From the NCBI RefSeq assembly GCF_000485595.1, contig NW_014577163.1, forward strand, positions 313,156 to 327,495: DNA of 14,340 bases, given 5' to 3'. Both the position numbers and the translations under genes were made by a program. This stretch comes from Priapulus caudatus (Eukaryota). Below the pieces are notes generated by a model that did no database searches, was not told the origin of the DNA, and saw nothing but the letters and a program-made list of their open reading frames with translations. This document shows, piece by piece, positions 1,641 through 14,176 of the stretch (its first letter is position 1; each line of letters begins with the position of its first letter).

Positions 1641-1909
1641 ACCATAAAACAAAAATTATGAAACATAAAACATGCCATACTAATGCGTAACTTTTAGACT
1701 GCATTCGATTGCTTGAAAGCAAGTGATATGACGTGCAGTTTAATGAGAGGATGGTGTGATTAGTAGATCTTTTTTTATAATTATAAAAACAGGATTATTA
1801 TTTTAATTAAATATTATAATTATAAGAATTAATGTAGTGCCTGTAGTCTGATGAGGCGAGCGGAACACGCCACCTTACCATCATGCCTTCACCCGTTCTT
1901 GCCCCGCAG

Positions 1910-2048
1910 GCATTTTGATCTTCCGGAGGAGGAGACCCAGAAGAGCCGGCTGTTCAGTGTCGCAGATTTTGTCGGCGATGCCTGCAAAGTGATCGCTTCA
2001 CGCATCCGCGGTTCCGTCATCAGCATTCCGTTCGACGACTTTCACAAG
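1910..2048 (+). CDS. MVP: Major vault protein exon (…[46 protein letters not shown])
   Basis: Acceptor ccccgcAG at 1908-1909 and donor GTGAGA at 2049. The translation aligns to human MVP …[48 protein letters not shown] (alignment recalled from memory). The ORF upstream of 1910 loses all similarity, which marks the exon boundary. The exon enters in phase 2. Confidence 0.85.
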
Positions 2049-2433
2049 GTGAGAGACGAGTGTGTGTATGAAACAGCATCGCCCATCAGCATGTCGTAAT
2101 CACGCACAAACGTTGAATGACATTCGTGGCGGTCAACGTGCGTGCATGTAAGGATGAGCTTGTTAAGACCTGTTTTGCTTAGTATTCTTAAAGCGTTGGC
2201 CACCGGCTGGATGTGTGTGTGCATGTGCATGTGAGCCACTGTCCTTAGCTACTATACTTCTTTCATTCGTGTTCCTTCTTTATCTTCTTTAAGTCTTTGT
2301 GGAATTCAAATTTGTAATGACAATTCTCAAACCTAAAATGCAACGTCATTTTACTGCATAATAGTAATTTTTCGTTTAACGTGAACGTCACGTGTCATCT
2401 GCATTAACTCTCACTTGCGCCATCTTTTGGCAG

Positions 2434-2645
2434 AATTCGGCGAAGATCATCCGCGTAGCGGTGTTCGGCATGGATGCTGAGATGAATGTGCGCAAGCACC
2501 TGTGTTTTGAGCAGAACTCCCTGTTCATCACAAGTGTAGACATCCAATCTGTGCAGCCCCTCGACCAGTGTATACGCGATTCACTCATGAAGTCTGAGCA
2601 GCTAGCGATAGAAATCACCACCAGCTCGCAGGAGGCAGCAGCCAG
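2434..2645 (+). CDS. MVP: Major vault protein exon ([12 protein letters not shown]…[37 protein letters not shown])
   Basis: Acceptor ttttggcAG at 2432-2433 joins in frame to the previous exon (phase 0). Donor GTCAGG at 2646. It aligns to human NSARIIRTAVFG…[37 protein letters not shown]. The six-frame ORF runs on into the intron, losing similarity and turning low-complexity. Confidence 0.85.
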
Positions 2646-3003
2646 GTCAGGAGCGACAACACGTGCTCACCTCGTGATTTGGCACGCTGTCCATCTGCTC
2701 ACTTTCTTCTACGTCAGTTCCGACCATACCCTCGCTGGTTTGCCTGTTCACTCATTTGCTCATTCACTCATTCGCTCCCTCGCTCGTCTGCATTTCACTA
2801 ATTTATTCGTATCCTTCCTTATTTGTTTAATCACTCGTTGATTAGTCTGCTCGATGTTTTGTAGTCTTACACATTTGCTAATTTGTTTGTTTTCTCCCTT
2901 ACTTTATTGTAAGGATTTAAGGAATGTAATTCAGCATGACTGCTCATGTTGAATTATTGAGATATAAGAGATGTGATAATGAAGAGGGTTTACCTCATTG
3001 CAG

Positions 3004-3112
3004 GCATGAGGCACAGCGTCTAGAGCAGCAAGCAAAGGGCAAGCTCGAGAGACAGAAGATCATGGACGAGGCAGAGGCAGAGAAGTCGAGGCGAAACCTG
3101 CTGGAACTACAG
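3004..3112 (+). CDS. MVP: Major vault protein exon ((R)[36 protein letters not shown])
   Basis: Acceptor cattgcAG at 3002-3003. The split codon ag|g gives R, matching human K at that position. Donor GTGAGC at 3113. It aligns to human [37 protein letters not shown]. Confidence 0.85.
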
Positions 3113-3410
3113 GTGAGCTCACTGCTTGTATTCCCTCCTACGTTTCTGATGTCCCATCTGTACAGACTTGTCACTCTGTAAACCCAACAAATTGGCTCAA
3201 TATCTGCTGATTCCCTGTGGATTCGAACAAGTGGGGTCCAAAGAGAGAAAGATACACTGGGTGTAACACTGAGAAGTGTCAGTGTAACTCAATCTATGAG
3301 TGATGTCTCGAGGGTTGTCAGTCTGTTACTCCTGTATTGTAATCTCATGAAATCTCGTCCAATAATTGCTGCGTATGTGTGTGACATCCCTGTACTTTTA
3401 CCTCTCATAG

Positions 3411-3530
3411 GCAGTCAGTGCAGCAATTGAGAGAACCGGCCAGGCGCAGGGTCGTGCAGAAGCTGAGAAGATTGGGGAAGCTGCAGTACAGCAGGCGAGA
3501 CTGAAGGCTGAAGCCATATCAATAGAGGCC
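3411..3530 (+). CDS. MVP: Major vault protein exon (AVSAAIERTGQAQGRAEAEKIGEAAVQQARLKAEAISIEA), cap-helix coiled coil
   Basis: Acceptor ctcatAG at 3409-3410 and consensus donor GTAAGT at 3531. It is 120 nt in phase 0 and aligns to human [47 protein letters not shown]. Confidence 0.8.
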
Positions 3531-3738
3531 GTAAGTAAACTCACTAGTGTACACCTGCGATGTTCTTAATGCCTTGCGTTAATGTAATAATGTATCAGTG
3601 TATATCTATTATAGCCAGCTTGCATTTCTCTTTTCAAATAATTGTGCGGAACGTAACTGGGTTCGCAAGGTTAAATGGGTACACTCTGCCGGTCGTACAA
3701 ACTCGTGTTTTTTTCTGGTGTTTAAACATGCACTGTAG

Positions 3739-3864
3739 ACATCAGAGCTGCAGCGTCTACAGAACGCCAGACAAGCTGAGGTCCATTATGTTCGTGAGCA
3801 GAACGCTCTTGAGGTGGAGAAGAGCCGCATTCATAGCAACATCAAAGTGGAGGAGTTTAAATAG
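3739..3864 (+). CDS. MVP: Major vault protein last recognisable exon (TSELQRLQNARQAEVHYVREQNALEVEKSRIHSNIKVEEFK*), in-frame TAG at 3862-3864
   Basis: Acceptor cactgtAG at 3737-3738. It aligns to human [39 protein letters not shown]. The stop comes directly after the VEEFK/VKKFK position, and no strong donor precedes it. Confidence 0.7.
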   Translation, partial: TSELQRLQNARQAEVHYVREQNALEVEKSRIHSNIKVEEFK

Positions 3865-6845: not shown

Positions 6846-6861
6846 GTATATATGTCCCGTG

Positions 6862-6940
<79 letters not shown>

Positions 6941-7052
6941 TCTCTCTCTCTCTCTTCTCTCTCTTCTCTCTCTTCTCTCTCTCTCTCTCTCATCTCTCTA
7001 TCTCGCTCTTTCTCTCTCTCTCATCTCTCTATCTCGCTCTTTCTCTCTCTAG
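6846..7052. repeat. (CT)n microsatellite, over 80 units with interruptions
   Basis: The sequence is ctctctct… throughout. The SLSLSL and RERERE ORFs are its translations. Confidence 0.95.
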
Positions 7053-7254
7053 CATCCGTCGGGGGTGCGGATGTTTCACTATGCATGGCACTGCTCCCTT
7101 CTCATTTTCGCTCGTTCTCTCGCTTTCTCTCGCGCTCTCTCCGCTTTACCCTCGTTTCCTTCTCCATGTCTCTCATTCTAGCTCTCTTGCTCTGTTCTGT
7201 CCTATCTCCCACCTTCAGTCCCCACTCCTTTCTGTTCCTTTTGCTCTCACGACT

Positions 7255-7255
7255 T

Positions 7256-7307
<52 letters not shown>

Positions 7308-7320
7308 TCTCTCTCTCTTT
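7255..7320. repeat. (CT)n microsatellite, second block
   Basis: Runs of ctctctct… read directly from the sequence. Confidence 0.95.
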
Positions 7321-7500: not shown

Positions 7501-7912
7501 AGGGAAATTATTATAAACGCCTTGTGCAGTGACGTCATAAGACGTGATCACGTGCCCTCGATCTACGCCCGAGGGAAAGTGACACCCAGTAACACGCTGT
7601 AACCACTACATGCACATCTTGATGCACATACATATGTAACGACATGATGCCGTATAGTACATAGCTGCGGTTAGTAGTCAATACATGGGGTGAACGCACA
7701 TGCGGCTAGTAGCCAGTACACAGTACACATGGCGACGAACGCGCGCGCTATGTGTAAACATCTCACGAACGGACATGCTGTATGCTTTAACATCTTGCTA
7801 TCTATTCGCCGGATTGCTGCAGACAACGGCAACCGCCATGTTGGAGGCCATGTCTGGCACGAGTACGCGTGACCTACCTACGTCACGTGATGCGTCACGG
7901 TGTATGTTTCAG

Positions 7913-8112
7913 GCAGCCGGCTGAAAGGGGTGGTAGGATATGTTTACTAAGCACTTCTAATTTTAACATATATTTTAAATTTAATTAGGGTCAGGGTTAG
8001 GGTTAGGGCACTTTTTAGGGGTTTTTGCATCATTCTTTAATATATCGTAAAATATATGTTAAAATTAGAAGTGCCTAGTAAACATATCCTATCACCCCTT
8101 TCAGCCGGCTGC
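7913..8112. repeat. 200-bp foldback: ~65-bp inverted-repeat arms with a loop carrying ttagggtcagggttagggttaggg
   Basis: Left arm 7913-7977 (gcagccggctgaaaggggtggtaggatatgtttactaagcacttctaattttaacatatatttta). The reverse complement of right arm 8049-8112 differs at about 3 positions. The loop 7978-8048 holds TTAGGG-type repeats. Confidence 0.85.
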
Positions 8113-8224
8113 ATGTTTCGGTCGAGGTACGTCACTTGACACAACATCCGCGCTTGCTTACCGCATGCAGTTATCTACCCAAACATCGCCGCACACTCAC
8201 CTCAACCCCTTACACGCCCGCCAC

Positions 8225-8290
8225 CCGCTGACGGGGGAGTGGGAAGGTAGGAGGGTAGGGGGTGTAGGAGGGTAGAATGGTAAGAGGGGC
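8225..8290. repeat. G-rich (GGGTAGGAG-like) tract on the + strand, G-quadruplex-capable
   Basis: gggggagtgggaaggtaggagggtagggggtgtaggagggtagaatggtaagagggg. It lies directly 3' of the minus-strand tRNA-like unit and may be the body of the same SINE-like element. Confidence 0.5.
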
Positions 8291-8340
8291 TCATCGTCGA
8301 GAAACAGCAGCAGCATTATTGTGTGAAACGGTAAAACTTT

Positions 8341-8435
8341 ATGCTCCGCCCGAGAGGGATTCGAACCACCCGGCTCCACCTCTCCAGCGGGTTTTCCGAA
8401 GGCGTCCAGAGGCTTCACCATTCAGTAAAATGGCG
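8341..8435 (-). ncRNA. tRNA-derived pol III unit (degenerate tRNA or SINE head) with a perfect B-box GGTTCGAATCC
   Basis: Minus strand reads …ggtggagccgggtggttcgaatccctctcgggcggagca then ataaagTTTT (terminator at + 8333-8336). An exact 11-mer B-box is unlikely by chance in 14 kb. I could not fold a canonical cloverleaf; the T-stem ggtgg/ccctc has a mismatch and no acceptor partner was found. Confidence 0.45.
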
Positions 8436-8483
8436 CGATTGCTTTACCTCACACTGCAATGCTACCGACGGACGAGGTAAGGC

Positions 8484-8491
8484 AAAAAAAA
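8484..8491 (-). terminator. Pol III terminator T8 (A8 on the + strand)
   Basis: It immediately follows the 3' end of the upstream tRNA-like unit on the minus strand (…gaggtcgaatcgcaca-TTTTTTTT). Confidence 0.5.
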
Positions 8492-8565
8492 TGTGCGATT
8501 CGACCTCTCGAGTTCCCGTCTTCCAGTCTACCAGTCGTGCGCTACCCGTGTAGCCTCAGGCACTT
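8492..8565 (-). ncRNA. Second tRNA-like pol III unit (B-box variant GGTCGAATC) ending in T8
   Basis: Minus strand reads gcctgaggctacacgggtagcgcacgactggtagactggaagacgggaactcgagaggtcgaatcgcaca + T8. It shares gag.gg…ggtcgaatc with the unit at 8341-8435. No canonical acceptor or D-stem pairing is present. Confidence 0.35.
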
Positions 8566-8842
8566 GGAGAGTTTCAATAAAACATAATGCTAAATAACTA
8601 CGAAATATATTTACTACCAGTCTTAATGTTTCTCTACTCTCCTTCACCTATTATTGCCGACAAACCGTGCTGCAAATGCTTCAGCCACTGCAACACACGC
8701 CCACCGCACGCACGCTGCTACGCGCTACTGGCAGTACTGCACACTTACACATAAATATAGAGTACTTAACACTTACACACATATCTATTCAATATTGATA
8801 TATATATATACAATATTGATAGACTCCTGATTATATATATAT

Positions 8843-8900
8843 CAGGAGTAGATAATAGGGAATTATTATTAATAGGGAATTCCCTATTATCTACTCCTGA
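8843..8900. mobile_element. 58-bp mini-hairpin (MITE-like) carrying the same termini as the 11246-12015 foldback element
   Basis: tcaggagtagataataggg-aattattattaataggg-aattccctattatctactcctga. It sits inside (TA)n. An extra truncated terminus agactcctga lies at 8821-8830. Confidence 0.7.
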
Positions 8901-8914
8901 TGTATATATATATA

Positions 8915-9112
8915 TGTGTGCGTGTGCGCGTGCGCGTGCGCGTGTGCGCGTGTGTGTGCGTGTTTGCGGGTGTGTATGTGTTTGTGTTTGTGTGCGTGTG
9001 CGTGTGCGTGCGTGCGTGCGTGCGTGTGTGTGTGTGTGTGTGTGTGTGCGTGCGTGTGTGTGTGTGTGTGTGTGCGCTCACTGTGTGCGCGTGCTCGTGC
9101 CGCGTGCGTGTG
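8915..9112. repeat. (GT)n/(GTGC)n/(GCGT)n compound microsatellite
   Basis: Runs of tgtgcgtgtgcgcgtg… Four overlapping ORFs (CVCVCV, THTHTH) are its translations. Confidence 0.95.
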
Positions 9113-9308
9113 TAACGCAACATAACGTTGTAATAACGTTTTCGTGTTAGCTAGCTGTTATCTAAACGCTGCTAGTGATAGGATATATGATGTTATACAA
9201 ATAACGATATAAGTAGATTATTCTAAACAAATATGTTTCATATATTTTGTATTATTATAACATATTCCATTATATTCACGTATTATCAAGAGCTTATAAT
9301 ATTTATAT

Positions 9309-9448
9309 ATTAATGCCTGCTGTTGGGGGCACTATGCTCTCATAGTGTTGCTGAGGGAAGGAATAGTGCCCGAGCGGTAGCGAGGGCACTATTCCTTCCC
9401 AAAGCAACACTATGAGAGCATAGTGCCCCCAACAGCAGGCATTAATGT
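9309..9448. repeat. 140-bp near-perfect palindrome (60-bp arms, 13-bp loop gagcggtagcgag)
   Basis: attaatgcctgctgttgggggcactatgctctcatagtgttgctgagggaaggaatagtgccc | loop | gggcactattccttccc-aaa-gcaacactatgagagcatagtgcccccaacagcaggcattaat. The arms differ only at ctca/aaa. Confidence 0.9.
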
Positions 9449-10501: not shown

Positions 10502-10553
10502 ATGGAGGATGTTTCTACAGTTGTTGTCGTGTTACTGGCGTTGTGTCATACTG
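10502..10553 (+). CDS. Putative signal-peptide exon (MEDVSTVVVVLLALCHT+g), phase 1, proposed exon 1 of the Ly6/uPAR gene
   Basis: ATG in good Kozak context, a hydrophobic core, and a consensus donor GTAAGA at 10554. It ends in phase 1, exactly what the 13215 acceptor needs; g+gt gives Gly, producing …CHTG|LAIRCYSC. The implied intron is 2.66 kb and contains the foldback element. Confidence 0.35.
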
Positions 10554-10720
10554 GTAAGAACCGAGATCGTTAATTATTCGCGCGTGCATTTATACGGTGA
10601 CAGTGTTTAATAGCGTACCTTTTCGGTACATTATTCACACATAAATTGGACACAACTGTTGCAGGTCACACAAAAACAGAAGTCGGGGACGTGTATGACT
10701 CAACTTGTAGTCGGTTCAAG

Positions 10721-10879
10721 GATAGAGAACATGGGTCCCAATAAAACCAATGTCATTTACATCAATATAAATTATTAAATATAATATTAATTATTATATC
10801 AATATAATAGGTTAGGGTTATGGTTAGGCCTTAGGGTTAGGCACATTGGTTTTATTGGGACCCATGTACGTTCTCTATC
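10721..10879. repeat. Foldback: 32-36-bp inverted arms (gatagagaacatgggtcccaataaaaccaatg) with a loop carrying ggttagggttatggttaggccttagggttagg
   Basis: The reverse complement of 10843-10879 equals the left arm with a 4-bp insertion (gtac). The loop is AT-rich followed by TTAGGG-type repeats ending …ggcac, as in the 7913-8112 element. Confidence 0.85.
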
Positions 10880-11078
10880 ATTTGGGCCTGTAGTCTACGT
10901 CTACGTCTACATCTGACACAGGCACTTGGGACAGAGTCAGTAAAAACTGAAAATAATATGAACGCACATTCACAAATACTACCGTACCTCTCAATTACAG
11001 TTCCACTGTTGTGTCACTGTATATCAACTTTCCTTCATAAAAACAAACACCGAACGCTCCCGCACTCGCCGCTGCGAG

Positions 11079-11215
11079 TGTGCTGTGTCGCCATTAGTTC
11101 TAGTACTATAGCCCGCTTACATTAATTGCCACTGCCAGCGGCAACTGTACGCGGGCTATAGTACTAGAGCTATGTCGCCATTAGCTCTAGTACTATAGCC
11201 CGCGTACAGTTGCCG
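11079..11215. repeat. S-shaped repeat: three copies of ctagtactatagcccgc in + / - / + orientation
   Basis: gtcgccattagttctagtactatagcccgc…gcgggctatagtactagagctatgtcgccattagctctagtactatagcccgcgtacagttgccgc. The middle copy is inverted relative to both outer copies. cagcggcaactgtacgcggg / cccgcgtacagttgccgc are also inverted. Confidence 0.8.
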
Positions 11216-11245
11216 CTTTGAGACCAAATTGTATATATATATATA

Positions 11246-12015
11246 TCAGGAGTAGATAATAGGGAAGGAGTGTGACATCAATAAACAAGGGAAATTCGTC
11301 ATTTACTAGCCTTAGAATACCTACGATTTACTACGCGTAACGCAACCAACTTGAGCTCAAATCGTACACAGTACATTTGCCTAGCATCGTGCTAAATCGT
11401 TTCCTCGTATACACCCGCAATCCGGAGATAGAGACTAAAACGTACGACACGATTATCCATTCTGTTGCCAGCACACAGAATCCAATAGACGCAAAACTTG
11501 AAACAAAAGGCAGCTACTAACGCGCTATTGCTAACTCGGCGAGGCATGTGGCTCGCTGGGAGATTAGGCATCAACGCAACACTCGGCGAGATAACCTTTG
11601 ACCCGGTACACAGCTACATACCGGCATACCGACATACAGCTGGCATGCCCCCACGCACGCACGCCAACCGCAATCAGCAGCAGATCGGGCTCAAATCTCC
11701 CAGCGAGCCACATTGCCCGCCGAGTTAGCAATAGCGCGTTAGTAGCTGCCTTTTGTTTCAAGTTTTGCGCCTATTGGATTCTGTGTGCTGGCAACAGAAT
11801 GGATAATCGTGTCATACGTTTTAGTCTCTCTATCTCCGGATTGCGGGTGTATACGAGGAAACGATTTAGCACGATGCTAGGCGAATGTACTGTGTACGAT
11901 TTGCGCTCAAGTTGGTTGAGTTACGCGTAGTAAATCGTAGGTATTCTAAGGCTAGTAAATGACGAATTTCCCTTGTTTATTGAAGTCACACTCCTTCCCT
12001 ATTATCTACTCCTGA
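11246..12015. mobile_element. 770-bp foldback / long-TIR element: terminal inverted repeats of ~320 bp (11246-11565 and 11694-12015) around a 128-bp unique core, inserted in (TA)n
   Basis: Termini are tcaggagtagataatagggaaggagtgtgac … gtcacactccttccctattatctactcctga. The arms are roughly 93-95% identical. The mirror-image ORFs at 11392-11574(-) and 11598-11930(+) translate to near-identical peptides (SNLPASH.ARRVSNSALVAAFCFKFC.YWILCAGNRMDNRV) only because they read the two arms. No transposase ORF is present, so it is non-autonomous. Confidence 0.8.
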
Positions 12016-12030
12016 TATATATATATACAA

Positions 12031-12069
12031 TCAAGAGTAGATAATAGAGTCTCTATAATCTACTCTTGA
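12031..12069. mobile_element. 39-bp mini-hairpin variant of the same TIR terminus (tcaagagtagataatagag / ctctataatctactcttga), flanked by TACAA on both sides
   Basis: It lies 16 bp 3' of the big element inside the same (TA)n tract. Direct tacaa occurs at 12026-12030 and 12070-12074. Confidence 0.65.
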
Positions 12070-12075
12070 TACAAT

Positions 12076-12146
12076 GTATATATATATATATGTATATTAT
12101 ATATATACATTGTATATATATATATATATATATACATATATATACA
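12076..12146. repeat. (TA)n microsatellite with interruptions
   Basis: Runs of (ta)n interrupted by tgtata and ttatat. Confidence 0.95.
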
Positions 12147-12342
12147 CTAGGGGTCAGTGATACATATGGTATTTTGTTCTAAAGTAAAACAATGTGGCTA
12201 TCTTTGTCAGGCTGCAAAGATATATGATCCCAGTTATTACCTAGGTAATGCTATTTATTGCATTCATAAGGTTGCATTCATTCTGGCTATTTCATTTTTT
12301 CACTGGGTGTGGGCCAGGGTGCATCTTGGTTGATAAGAGAGG

Positions 12343-12418
12343 TGCTTTGTTGTTGTTGTTGTTTTTTGTGGCTAATGCTGCTGCTGCTTCTGCTGCTGTT
12401 GCTGCTGTTGCTGCTGCA
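12343..12418. repeat. (TTG)n followed by (GCT)n trinucleotide repeats
   Basis: ttgttgttgttgttg…gctgctgctgcttctgctgctgttgctgctgttgctgctg. Overlapping ORFs give poly-L and poly-A. No splice or gene context supports coding. Confidence 0.85.
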
Positions 12419-13214
12419 GTACCGAAGTTATTGTCGTAGATTACAGGGAGGAAAATCTTTTGCAGTTTCATGGATTTCTGATTTTTTTAGCTGTTAGTAC
12501 TGATTTGGATAAATTCAAAGAGAAAATTTAGGTGGGGTTAGAATACCTTACGTGATTTAAAGACCAGACTTAGCCCGATGTCTCATAAACTATAGTCATG
12601 GGAATTGGTTGGAATTCCATCATCAATCATCGGTTGCACGCAACCGATCGATGATTGAAGATAATCAGTTGAATGTTATTGATCGCGGCTACCAGATGTT
12701 GAAATATATTATATATCATATAATACAGTATTTTTTTATAATACAATATTCGAAAAGCTATATGACAGTATTATGCATGCTTATGTTTGGTGCAGGTTAT
12801 ATTTACTGTCTTCATGCTGTATAGTAACCAAACTAAACACAATAATAAAATTAAGTGTCATTTCATCAGTGTTTGCAAATTTTATTAAAAAATGTGAAAA
12901 AAACTTTTTTGATTGATTATTTATTTTCATAATCAAGCGCTTATACGTATAGTCGGTTGCTGCAAACGACTGACTTTCGATTATAATCGATCATCGGGAC
13001 ATCACTATCATAAAGTCGGATCACATTGTTAGAGAGCAACTTGTTTAGTTTAGTAAAACTATGGAGTATTAACTAAGTCGAGTGTATTCCAGATTGTGAC
13101 TGTAGGTATTTTGTACACCATTTGTCGTTGCAATTTTTTGTTCAATTATGATTTCAGATTTTTTTGTCGGTCATTCTCATCCCTGATCCTGAGGTCATGA
13201 TTGCTTGTTGACAG

Positions 13215-13361
13215 GTCTAGCCATAAGATGCTACTCATGTACAGTTCCTCCATATCCAGGAGCGGATCTTCATACAAATAAACGCAACATCTGTCCAGAC
13301 ATTAGTTGTCCGGGACCAAAGGAGGAACAAGTATGTGTGAAGATTACTGATAACAGAGGAA
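13215..13361 (+). CDS. Ly6/uPAR (three-finger) domain exon: (G)LAIRCYSCTVPPYPGADLHTNKRNICPDISCPGPKEEQVCVKITDNRG
   Basis: Acceptor ttgttgacAG at 13213-13214 and consensus donor GTAAGT at 13362. It opens with the LU-domain signature L-x-C-Y-S-C and has 5 cysteines with family-typical spacing. It enters and leaves in phase 1. Confidence 0.6.
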
Positions 13362-13374
13362 GTAAGTATCACAG

Positions 13375-13411
13375 TAATATTAATAATAATAACAATAATA
13401 ATAATAATAAT
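13375..13411. repeat. (AAT)n microsatellite in the Ly6 intron
   Basis: aataataataacaataataataataataat. Confidence 0.95.
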
Positions 13412-13464
13412 TTAGAATGGATATTCTGGTGTAAACTGTATGTATTTCCCTCCAGAGTACTCAG

Positions 13465-13468
<4 letters not shown>

Positions 13469-13495
<27 letters not shown>
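13469..13495. repeat. (TA)13 microsatellite
   Basis: Read directly from the sequence. Confidence 0.95.
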
Positions 13496-13640
13496 TGTGT
13501 GTCGGAGATTATTGTCACAGAGACAATTAGGAATCACCATCATGGGAGAGAAAAACCACCCAGTCTGAAATAGGCTTGAATAATATATTTACGGTGACCT
13601 GTTGTGCAGACGTGTTTCATAGCAGTTTTGCACATGAATA

Positions 13641-13662
13641 AGAGAGAGAGAGAGAGAGAGAG
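13641..13662. repeat. (GA)11 microsatellite
   Basis: Read directly from the sequence. Confidence 0.95.
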
Positions 13663-13746
13663 CTAATTTTGTCTATTACGTATTTACCTTTGTCACTTTT
13701 TGTCATACTGGGTTTTGTCATGAAAGTATGTACACATTGTTTCTAG

Positions 13747-13830
13747 GCGAAGAGGTCATCGTAAGAGGGTGCCTTTGGGACCTCAGATCAAGTAACTGGG
13801 CTCCTCTGCTCCCTGGAGATGTATTTACAG
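13747..13830 (+). CDS. Ly6/uPAR domain exon: SEEVIVRGCLWDLRSSNWAPLLPGDVFT(G)
   Basis: Acceptor ttgtttctAG at 13745-13746 and donor GTATGT at 13831. It is phase-1 compatible with the neighbouring exons (a|gc gives Ser, g|ga gives Gly) and contributes one Cys (RGC). Confidence 0.55.
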
Positions 13831-13976
13831 GTATGTGACTTACTTATTTAACAGTGAAAATAAATCATGCTTAGGATATGCGCATTAAAACAGTTCTTTG
13901 TCTCCATGGAATCTTTATTAATTTATATATGTTTACAGCTGATTCAGTCCTCCAATCTTTAACATTATCTTCGCAG

Positions 13977-14176
13977 GATGCCGGAAACCAGCTGTCGATA
14001 AATACCTAACGCCTAATGACTACTATCTGAACGTGTACAAGCAACCACACGAATCCATAGACTTCTGCTTCTGCAATGACTGGATATGGTGCAATGGCGC
14101 ACCACAACTGGTGAAGTCGGCCATCCTGCCTGGTTTACTATTGGCTTTGTCGCTGTGGCATTTATTGTACGCATGA
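13977..14176 (+). CDS. Ly6/uPAR terminal exon: (G)CRKPAVDKYLTPNDYYLNVYKQPHESIDFCFCNDWIWCNGAPQLVKSAILPGLLLALSLWHLLYA*
   Basis: Acceptor tcttcgcAG at 13975-13976. It holds the family's C-terminal signature: a near-adjacent Cys pair FCFC, then x5, then C-N (CNDWIWCN). A small-residue omega region (NGA) follows, then a 17-residue hydrophobic tail, which is a typical GPI-anchor signal. TGA at 14174-14176. The mature domain has 10 Cys in total. Confidence 0.6.

Follow-up and report, generated by a model that had tools for sequence, protein, structure and literature searches.

Does the 6.5-kb intergenic stretch between the exons of a major vault protein (MVP) copy and a Ly6/uPAR-type gene of Priapulus caudatus harbor pol III units derived from tRNA, and if so, of what kind? 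We addressed this question in a window of 14,340 nucleotides (the whole stretch of DNA analysed), which carries the signature of eukaryotic nuclear DNA (short exons, GT-AG introns, microsatellites, palindromic MITE-like elements and TTAGGG tracts) and in which the Ly6/uPAR-type protein (10502-14176) is 100% identical to the product of the NCBI locus LOC106805155 of Priapulus caudatus. On the strand opposite to the two genes, the preliminary description had singled out two tandem, related units with B-boxes and oligo-T terminators, and had read them as a dimeric tRNA-derived SINE or a pair of decayed tRNA genes. The observation is partly confirmed, and the interpretation is partly supported, for one of the units only; this one is denoted here unit 1, and the one that lies upstream of it on the minus strand, unit 2 (Table 1).

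Table 1. Positions of the genes, motifs, repeats and predicted hairpins discussed in the text
Feature	Positions	Strand	Description
MVP exons (n = 5)	1893-3864	+	encode the shoulder and cap-helix part
G-rich tandem repeat (GGAGGGTA)n	8233-8288	+	TRF period 8, 5.8 copies, and period 25, 2 copies; direct-repeat family D1
TTTT, minimal pol III terminator	8333-8336	-	9 nt past the acceptor-like end at 8346
tRNA-minihelix-like hairpin, 45 nt	8346-8390	-	CCGCUGG-AGAGG ... CCUCU-CGGGCGG
pol III B-box / tRNA T-loop consensus GGTTCGAATCC	8357-8367	-	0 mismatches
tRNA-Gln-like segment AATGGTGAAGCCTCTGGAC (AATGGTGAAGC-CTCTGGAC)	8404-8422	-	resembles tRNA-Gln positions 13-32
Internal TTTT in the 147-nt unit 1	8427-8430	-	equal in strength to the proposed terminator at 8333-8336
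5' hairpin of unit 1 (GCCUUACCUC ... GAGGUAAAGC)	8439-8485	-	inverted repeat, 12-nt arms, 92% complementary
T8 run between the units	8484-8491	-	read from the sequence
B-box look-alike GGTCGAATCG	8496-8505	-	one deletion and one substitution relative to the consensus
8-nt tandem repeat GACTGGWA	8513-8536	-	GACTGGTA GACTGGAA GACGGGAA; TRF period 8, 3.0 copies; middle of unit 2
Ly6/uPAR-type gene (PF17064)	10502-10553, 13215-13361, 13747-13830, 13977-14176	+	intact, four exons, 160 aa

The B-box of unit 1 is exact and is the single match to GGTTCRANNCC in the whole window; the preliminary description had placed it correctly on the minus strand, albeit 3 nt off (8360-8370 rather than 8357-8367). 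The minus strand 3' of the B-box reads CCCTC TCGGGCG G, followed by nine bases and TTTT, and the distance of 9 nt between the putative 3' end (8346) and this terminator (8336-8333) is likewise as originally described. Unit 1 stands above the chance level because an exact B-box (with the NN positions left free) that is followed by T4 or a longer T-run within 40 nt occurs in just one of 200 Markov shuffles of the window. A chance B-box match, the objection that had been raised from the outset, applies to unit 2 but probably not to unit 1.

The likeness to tRNA extends beyond the B-box. A 21-mer that spans the T-loop, T-stem and acceptor (GGTTCGAATCCCTCTCGGGCG) was found exactly in five bacterial genomes in one prokaryotic genome scan, and in two of the five, it makes up these same parts of tRNA-Arg genes called by ARAGORN. 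A 19-mer of unit 1 that includes the imperfect 5' strand of the T-stem recurs unchanged within a phage tRNA-Cys, and the prokaryotic and viral scans with the 3' string returned only genuine bacterial or phage tRNAs sharing the string. One phage contig (IMG/VR UViG_3300015607_002611) has, at 605-830, a tRNA-Cys between two tRNAs with the anticodon CTA, to which ARAGORN assigns the label tRNA-Pyl; so compact a group of tRNAs of the amber-suppressor type hints that TAG is recoded in this phage. Immediately 5' of the T-arm, CGCTGGA (8389-8383, minus strand) pairs with the 3' acceptor strand at six of the seven positions. The statement in the preliminary description that no matching 5' acceptor strand exists is hereby corrected, with the proviso that the strand closes a minihelix, not a cloverleaf. 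In the predicted hairpin (8390-8346), the acceptor-like stem is stacked on the T-stem and the B-box falls in the loop region; RNAfold assigns it -27.3 kcal/mol (z = -3.70, with none of the 200 shuffles as stable), for a window chosen after the folds had been seen. A custom tRNA covariance model, R1, was built from 24 tRNAs, three of which had been fetched via the string of unit 1 itself, so that the model is partly circular. Its top match in the whole window is 8389-8346 on the minus strand (10.2 bits, E ~0.17, values inflated by this partial circularity), and the alignment consists of the acceptor stem and T-arm, with the D and anticodon arms deleted (34 positions replaced by 5 nt).

These findings bear on the possibility that the B-box and the T-runs arose by pure chance in a sequence that was never related to tRNA. 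Many windows were read, so that an event with a frequency of 1 in 200 is expected somewhere; in addition, unit 2 is at the chance level and no tRNA model gives a significant match. Nevertheless, we regard this explanation as quite unlikely, given that the match reaches past the 11-mer to a 21-mer that is found unaltered at the 3' ends of real tRNAs and that the complementary acceptor strand is correctly placed.

By predicted fold and sequence, unit 1 resembles tRNA minihelices and tRNA-like 3' modules, such as the tRNA-like domain of tmRNA and mascRNA-type structures, with which it shares a 7-bp acceptor-like stem (with one mismatch) on a 5-bp T-stem, as well as the UUCGAAU motif. It differs from these in that the loop is 21 nt long and the UUC of the T-loop is sequestered in an inner helix.

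Upstream of the minihelix-like hairpin, the segment 8422-8404 agrees at 17 of 20 positions (z = 4.9, with none of 300 shuffles scoring equally) with positions 13-32 of tRNA-Gln, which comprise the D loop, the 3' strand of the D stem and the 5' strand of the anticodon stem. Among the 28 tRNAs of the comparison panel, tRNA-Gln, the sequence of which agrees with that given in PMC5159642, is the best match. When multiple testing is taken into account, this likeness holds up only marginally and is suggestive at most. Likeness to tRNA-Lys or tRNA-Arg upstream of the B-box was not significant with the same panel. Farther upstream, no tRNA similarity was detected in the 5' hairpin (8439-8485, minus strand), which is also seen in the predicted fold of the whole unit 1, and the 5' third of unit 1 (8483-8437) is an unrelated hairpin.

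The features of a canonical tRNA that are present in unit 1 are the exact 11-mer of the B-box/T-arm and the 3' acceptor strand. ARAGORN found no tRNA genes in the window under the default settings, nor when introns were allowed. Rfam searches at gathering thresholds identified no family, and there was no match to the tRNA, tRNA-Sec, Vault or other pol III families at E<=10 in a 601-nt or in a 261-nt sequence. Thus, as had been stated originally, the units do not fold as canonical tRNAs, and the Rfam results for tRNA and tRNA-Sec agree with the lack of a canonical cloverleaf. The A box (TRGCNNAGTGG), to be expected 30-60 nt upstream of the B-box, had no matches with up to one mismatch in the whole window. 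Having neither a D arm nor an anticodon arm nor an A box, unit 1 is unable to make a tRNA.

The resemblance of the 3' part of unit 1 to tRNA-Sec that had been reported exists, with the T-arm and the 3' string of the acceptor resembling ...GTGGTTCAATTCCACCTTTCGGGCG, but is not specific: bacterial tRNA-Arg genes and a tRNA-Leu sequence match equally well or better. The minus strand of 8436-8346 contains no TCA that could represent a UCA anticodon, and unit 1 further differs from tRNA-Sec in lacking the 9/4 fold, an in-register 6-bp D stem and a match to the Rfam model. Accordingly, tRNA-Sec was rejected for unit 1 on account of the missing UCA anticodon and model match. Neither unit appears to be a tRNA, a tRNA-Sec or a vault RNA.

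Could unit 2 and unit 1 be, respectively, the 5' and 3' halves of one tRNA gene split by an insertion? Under the settings -ps80 -i, ARAGORN does call a 'tRNA-Ser(cga)' with a 105-nt intron at 8541-8346, and UGCCUGA (8562-8556) can pair with the 3' acceptor when G-U pairs are allowed. However, with these relaxed settings there are 1.4 calls for each shuffled sequence of 601 nt, and in the real window the 23 tiles account for 31; the called tRNA has poor stems, and a 7-nt partner with G-U pairs is expected ~0.4 times per 220 nt. When a 5' acceptor strand was sought at a greater distance, again with G-U pairs allowed, four sites emerged in 3.6 kb, approximately the number expected by chance. The tRNA-Ser(cga) call was rejected, being effectively refuted by the false-positive rate of relaxed ARAGORN, and we give the split-gene scenario hardly any credence.

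We now turn to unit 2. The preliminary description had placed it about 130 nt upstream of unit 1, running straight into T8; GGTCGAATC is indeed found at 8505-8497 on the minus strand, 138 nt upstream, with T8 five bases on, but the claimed relatedness of the two units did not withstand scrutiny, as 30 of 500 shuffles align equally well, so that the similarity is not significant. B-box sites with two edits followed by a T-run are about as common in shuffled windows (6.3 per window) as in the real one (7), and once unit 1 is given, the chance of another such site on its strand within 250 nt is ~8%, as estimated from the shuffle rate. The predicted folds of unit 2 are no better than those of shuffled sequences (z from -0.01 to +1.07). 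What resembles the anticodon arm of tRNA-Phe in unit 2 (TAGACTGGAAGA) was discounted because this stretch is the 8-nt tandem repeat. Unit 2 is therefore indistinguishable from chance and only unit 1 carries a signal, given the frequency of such sites in shuffled sequences, the dissimilarity of the units, the tandem repeat and the poor fold of unit 2. The C-rich minus-strand tract at 8225-8290, originally proposed to be the body of a SINE, is the (GGAGGGTA)n repeat, a simple tandem repeat by TRF that is situated past the T4. We read both unit 2 and the C-rich tract as unrelated, low-complexity DNA, the resemblance of which to a B-box with a terminator is coincidental.

Under the SINE hypothesis, each unit would correspond to one monomer and the C-rich tract to the body. 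What speaks for it is that one strand carries two B-box-like motifs, spaced by 138 nt, with a T-run after each of them. Against it, pol III would be stopped by the T8 that separates the monomers, the units have no significant similarity to each other, there is no A box, and the supposed body consists of a simple tandem repeat situated past the T4; altogether, the proposed element contains one T8 and two T4 runs. No k-mer of at least 8 nt is common to 8430-8600 and 8094-8346, as would be the case for a target-site duplication; no SINE tail was found at the locus, and no second copy of any part of the proposed element was found in the 14-kb window. The JGI metagenome and IMG/VR viral collections yielded 0 matching copies. 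In view of these results, we abandon the description of the locus as two tandem related units forming a dimeric SINE, which we deem very unlikely. With no copies, target-site duplication or tail found, membership of unit 1 in a SINE family is unproven. The other original proposal, a pair of decayed tRNA genes, suits unit 1, with its T-arm, B-box, 3' acceptor strand and the suggestive tRNA-Gln-like segment, but not the chance-like unit 2.

Alternatively, unit 1 could be a functional gene, driven mainly by the B-box, from which pol III would transcribe a novel, tRNA-like small RNA ~85-105 nt in length that folds into three hairpins and has a single-stranded tail. The perfect B-box followed by T4 is compatible with this possibility, as is the three-hairpin fold predicted for the 104-nt stretch 8436-8333 on the minus strand (z = -2.5, for a window picked after the folds had been seen). 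Moreover, the 3' module is better kept than uniform neutral decay would leave it: the combination of a near-perfect 3' module with an unrecognisable 5' part disfavours such decay and hints at either rearrangement or selection on the B-box. Several observations count against a working gene. There is no A box and no known family matches; the z-scores come from windows defined post hoc, and the fold of the whole 147-nt unit 1 attains just z = -1.45. The T4 at 8430-8427 lies at or just past any plausible start, and because it is as strong as the proposed terminator, a pol III transcript that began near 8483 should end there. All told, we consider a working gene to be unlikely.

The location of the units, 4.4 kb downstream of the MVP fragment, raises the question of whether they could be highly divergent vault RNA genes. 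The MVP exons match the Pfam MVP_shoulder domain with E = 4e-31, and the encoded sequence is 65-68% identical to its best relatives in the databases. This copy of MVP ends at ...VEEFK*, so that the last ~70 residues of the homologues are absent, and no exons for these C-terminal residues were found anywhere in the window; it is possibly a truncated or decaying gene in an ecdysozoan. The MVP copy did not turn up among the annotated P. caudatus proteins. Vaults have been mostly lost in Ecdysozoa.

Besides the nearby MVP exons on the plus strand, the vault RNA hypothesis can draw on the spacing between the B-box and the terminator and on the 3' part of unit 1, both of which resemble those of human vtRNA1-1. 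Vault RNAs are pol III transcripts of 80-150 nt with a box A, a weakly conserved box B and a T-run at the end (PMC8824774), and unit 1 would fall in this size class, with its internal B-box ~20 nt before the T-run. The best conserved feature of vault RNAs is box A with the flanking TTACTTCG (PMC8824774, after Stadler et al. 2009); the motif that combines box A with TTACTTCG, taken from Lottia gigantea and Helobdella robusta, served to recover the vault RNAs of Fasciola hepatica (PMC8824774), and the 5' and 3' ends of vault RNAs pair as a panhandle (PMC8824774). In contrast, the conserved box A with TTACTTCG is absent here: the 19-mer TAGCTCAGCGGTTACTTCG of the vault box A has 0 matches in the whole window even with up to three mismatches. 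No 5'/3' panhandle is seen in the minimum-energy folds, which consist of independent hairpins and a free 3' tail, and the Rfam covariance model (Vault, RF00006) is silent at E<=10. The truncation of the neighbouring MVP copy also counts against this hypothesis, and no comparable unit was found at two other MVP loci, on metagenomic contigs. The vault RNA candidate was rejected for want of the box A motif, a panhandle and an Rfam match, and its resemblance to vault RNA comes down to proximity and a generic B-box; that the units are vault RNA genes, however divergent, appears extremely improbable. We attach equally little weight to the variant in which the stretch ~8436-8333 on the minus strand would be an expressed, tRNA-like pol III RNA with three hairpins and the B-box in the minihelix, that is, a priapulid vault-associated RNA devoid of box A and panhandle.

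The intergenic DNA around unit 1 is rich in transposons. Two long, palindromic MITE-like elements with perfect stems and internal TTAGGG-type repeats are located at 7933-8093 and 10722-10878, the former nested in a larger, imperfect palindrome (~7897-8120). Copies of the terminal motif CAGGAGTAGATAATAGGGAA, with (TA)n on the flanks, are present at 8831-8913, 11240-11262 and 11990-12075, and the pair at ~11240 and ~12010 encloses an inverted-repeat structure of ~770 bp, the arms of which join near 11630; these elements seem to represent a family of DNA transposons or MITEs that target TA. Near-perfect hairpins of 80-130 nt at 9305-9440 and 11138-11216 give spurious, sub-threshold matches to Rfam miRNA families. 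Long (CT)n and (GT/GCGT)n microsatellite tracts (6850-7320 and 8915-9095) lie on either side of the intergenic units. Elsewhere in the window, positions 270-700 are occupied by a tandem array of ~60-120-nt units (...aaaattttcaggataggtcagaaatggggtaacttagaattgattacattttggtg...) with (TTAA)n-rich spacers in between, and two similar motifs that combine an A-run with a G/C-palindrome (aaaaaaattcgggggga...cccccc), at 100-180 and 1470-1510, are probably members of a dispersed repeat.

On balance, we favor, with due restraint, the interpretation of unit 1 as a solitary, rearranged relic of tRNA type, be it a tRNA pseudogene or part of a repeat related to tRNA, in transposon-rich intergenic DNA. What would have survived is a tRNA 3' module, namely, the T-arm with its perfect B-box and the 3' acceptor strand, which a nearby complementary strand may close into the minihelix-like hairpin, and perhaps, upstream, a short stretch resembling the D-loop and anticodon stem. 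Both the D and anticodon arms would have been lost, together with the A box, leaving no tRNA product. The intact B-box could still bind TFIIIC and might, at most, sustain weak transcription by pol III, giving an RNA ~85-105 nt long with its 3' end at the T4. Such a relic could have originated through internal rearrangement or by descent from a tRNA-related repeat that was already chimeric. With known tRNA pseudogenes and tRNA-related repeat fragments, including the heads of tRNA-derived SINEs, unit 1 shares the intact B-box, T-arm and 3' acceptor, the T-run shortly thereafter, the repeat-rich intergenic setting and, possibly, the remnant of the D-loop and anticodon stem. In contrast to them, it lacks an A box and a cloverleaf, and its 5' acceptor-like strand abuts the T-arm, resulting in the minihelix.

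Animal genomes commonly contain isolated, tRNA-derived relics whose B-boxes have survived and that serve, at most, as TFIIIC binding sites. As what is most likely an ordinary tRNA-derived relic, unit 1 matters little at this time, and the useful outcome is negative: the 'dimeric SINE' had been built on one real motif and one chance look-alike, and the link to vault RNA fails its defining tests. A parent tRNA gene carrying GGTGGTTCGAATCCCTCTCGGGCGG, if present, would point to the tRNA from which unit 1 derives. Should RNA data show a discrete transcript, a B-box-driven minihelix RNA beside MVP in an ecdysozoan would bear on the evolution of vault RNA.
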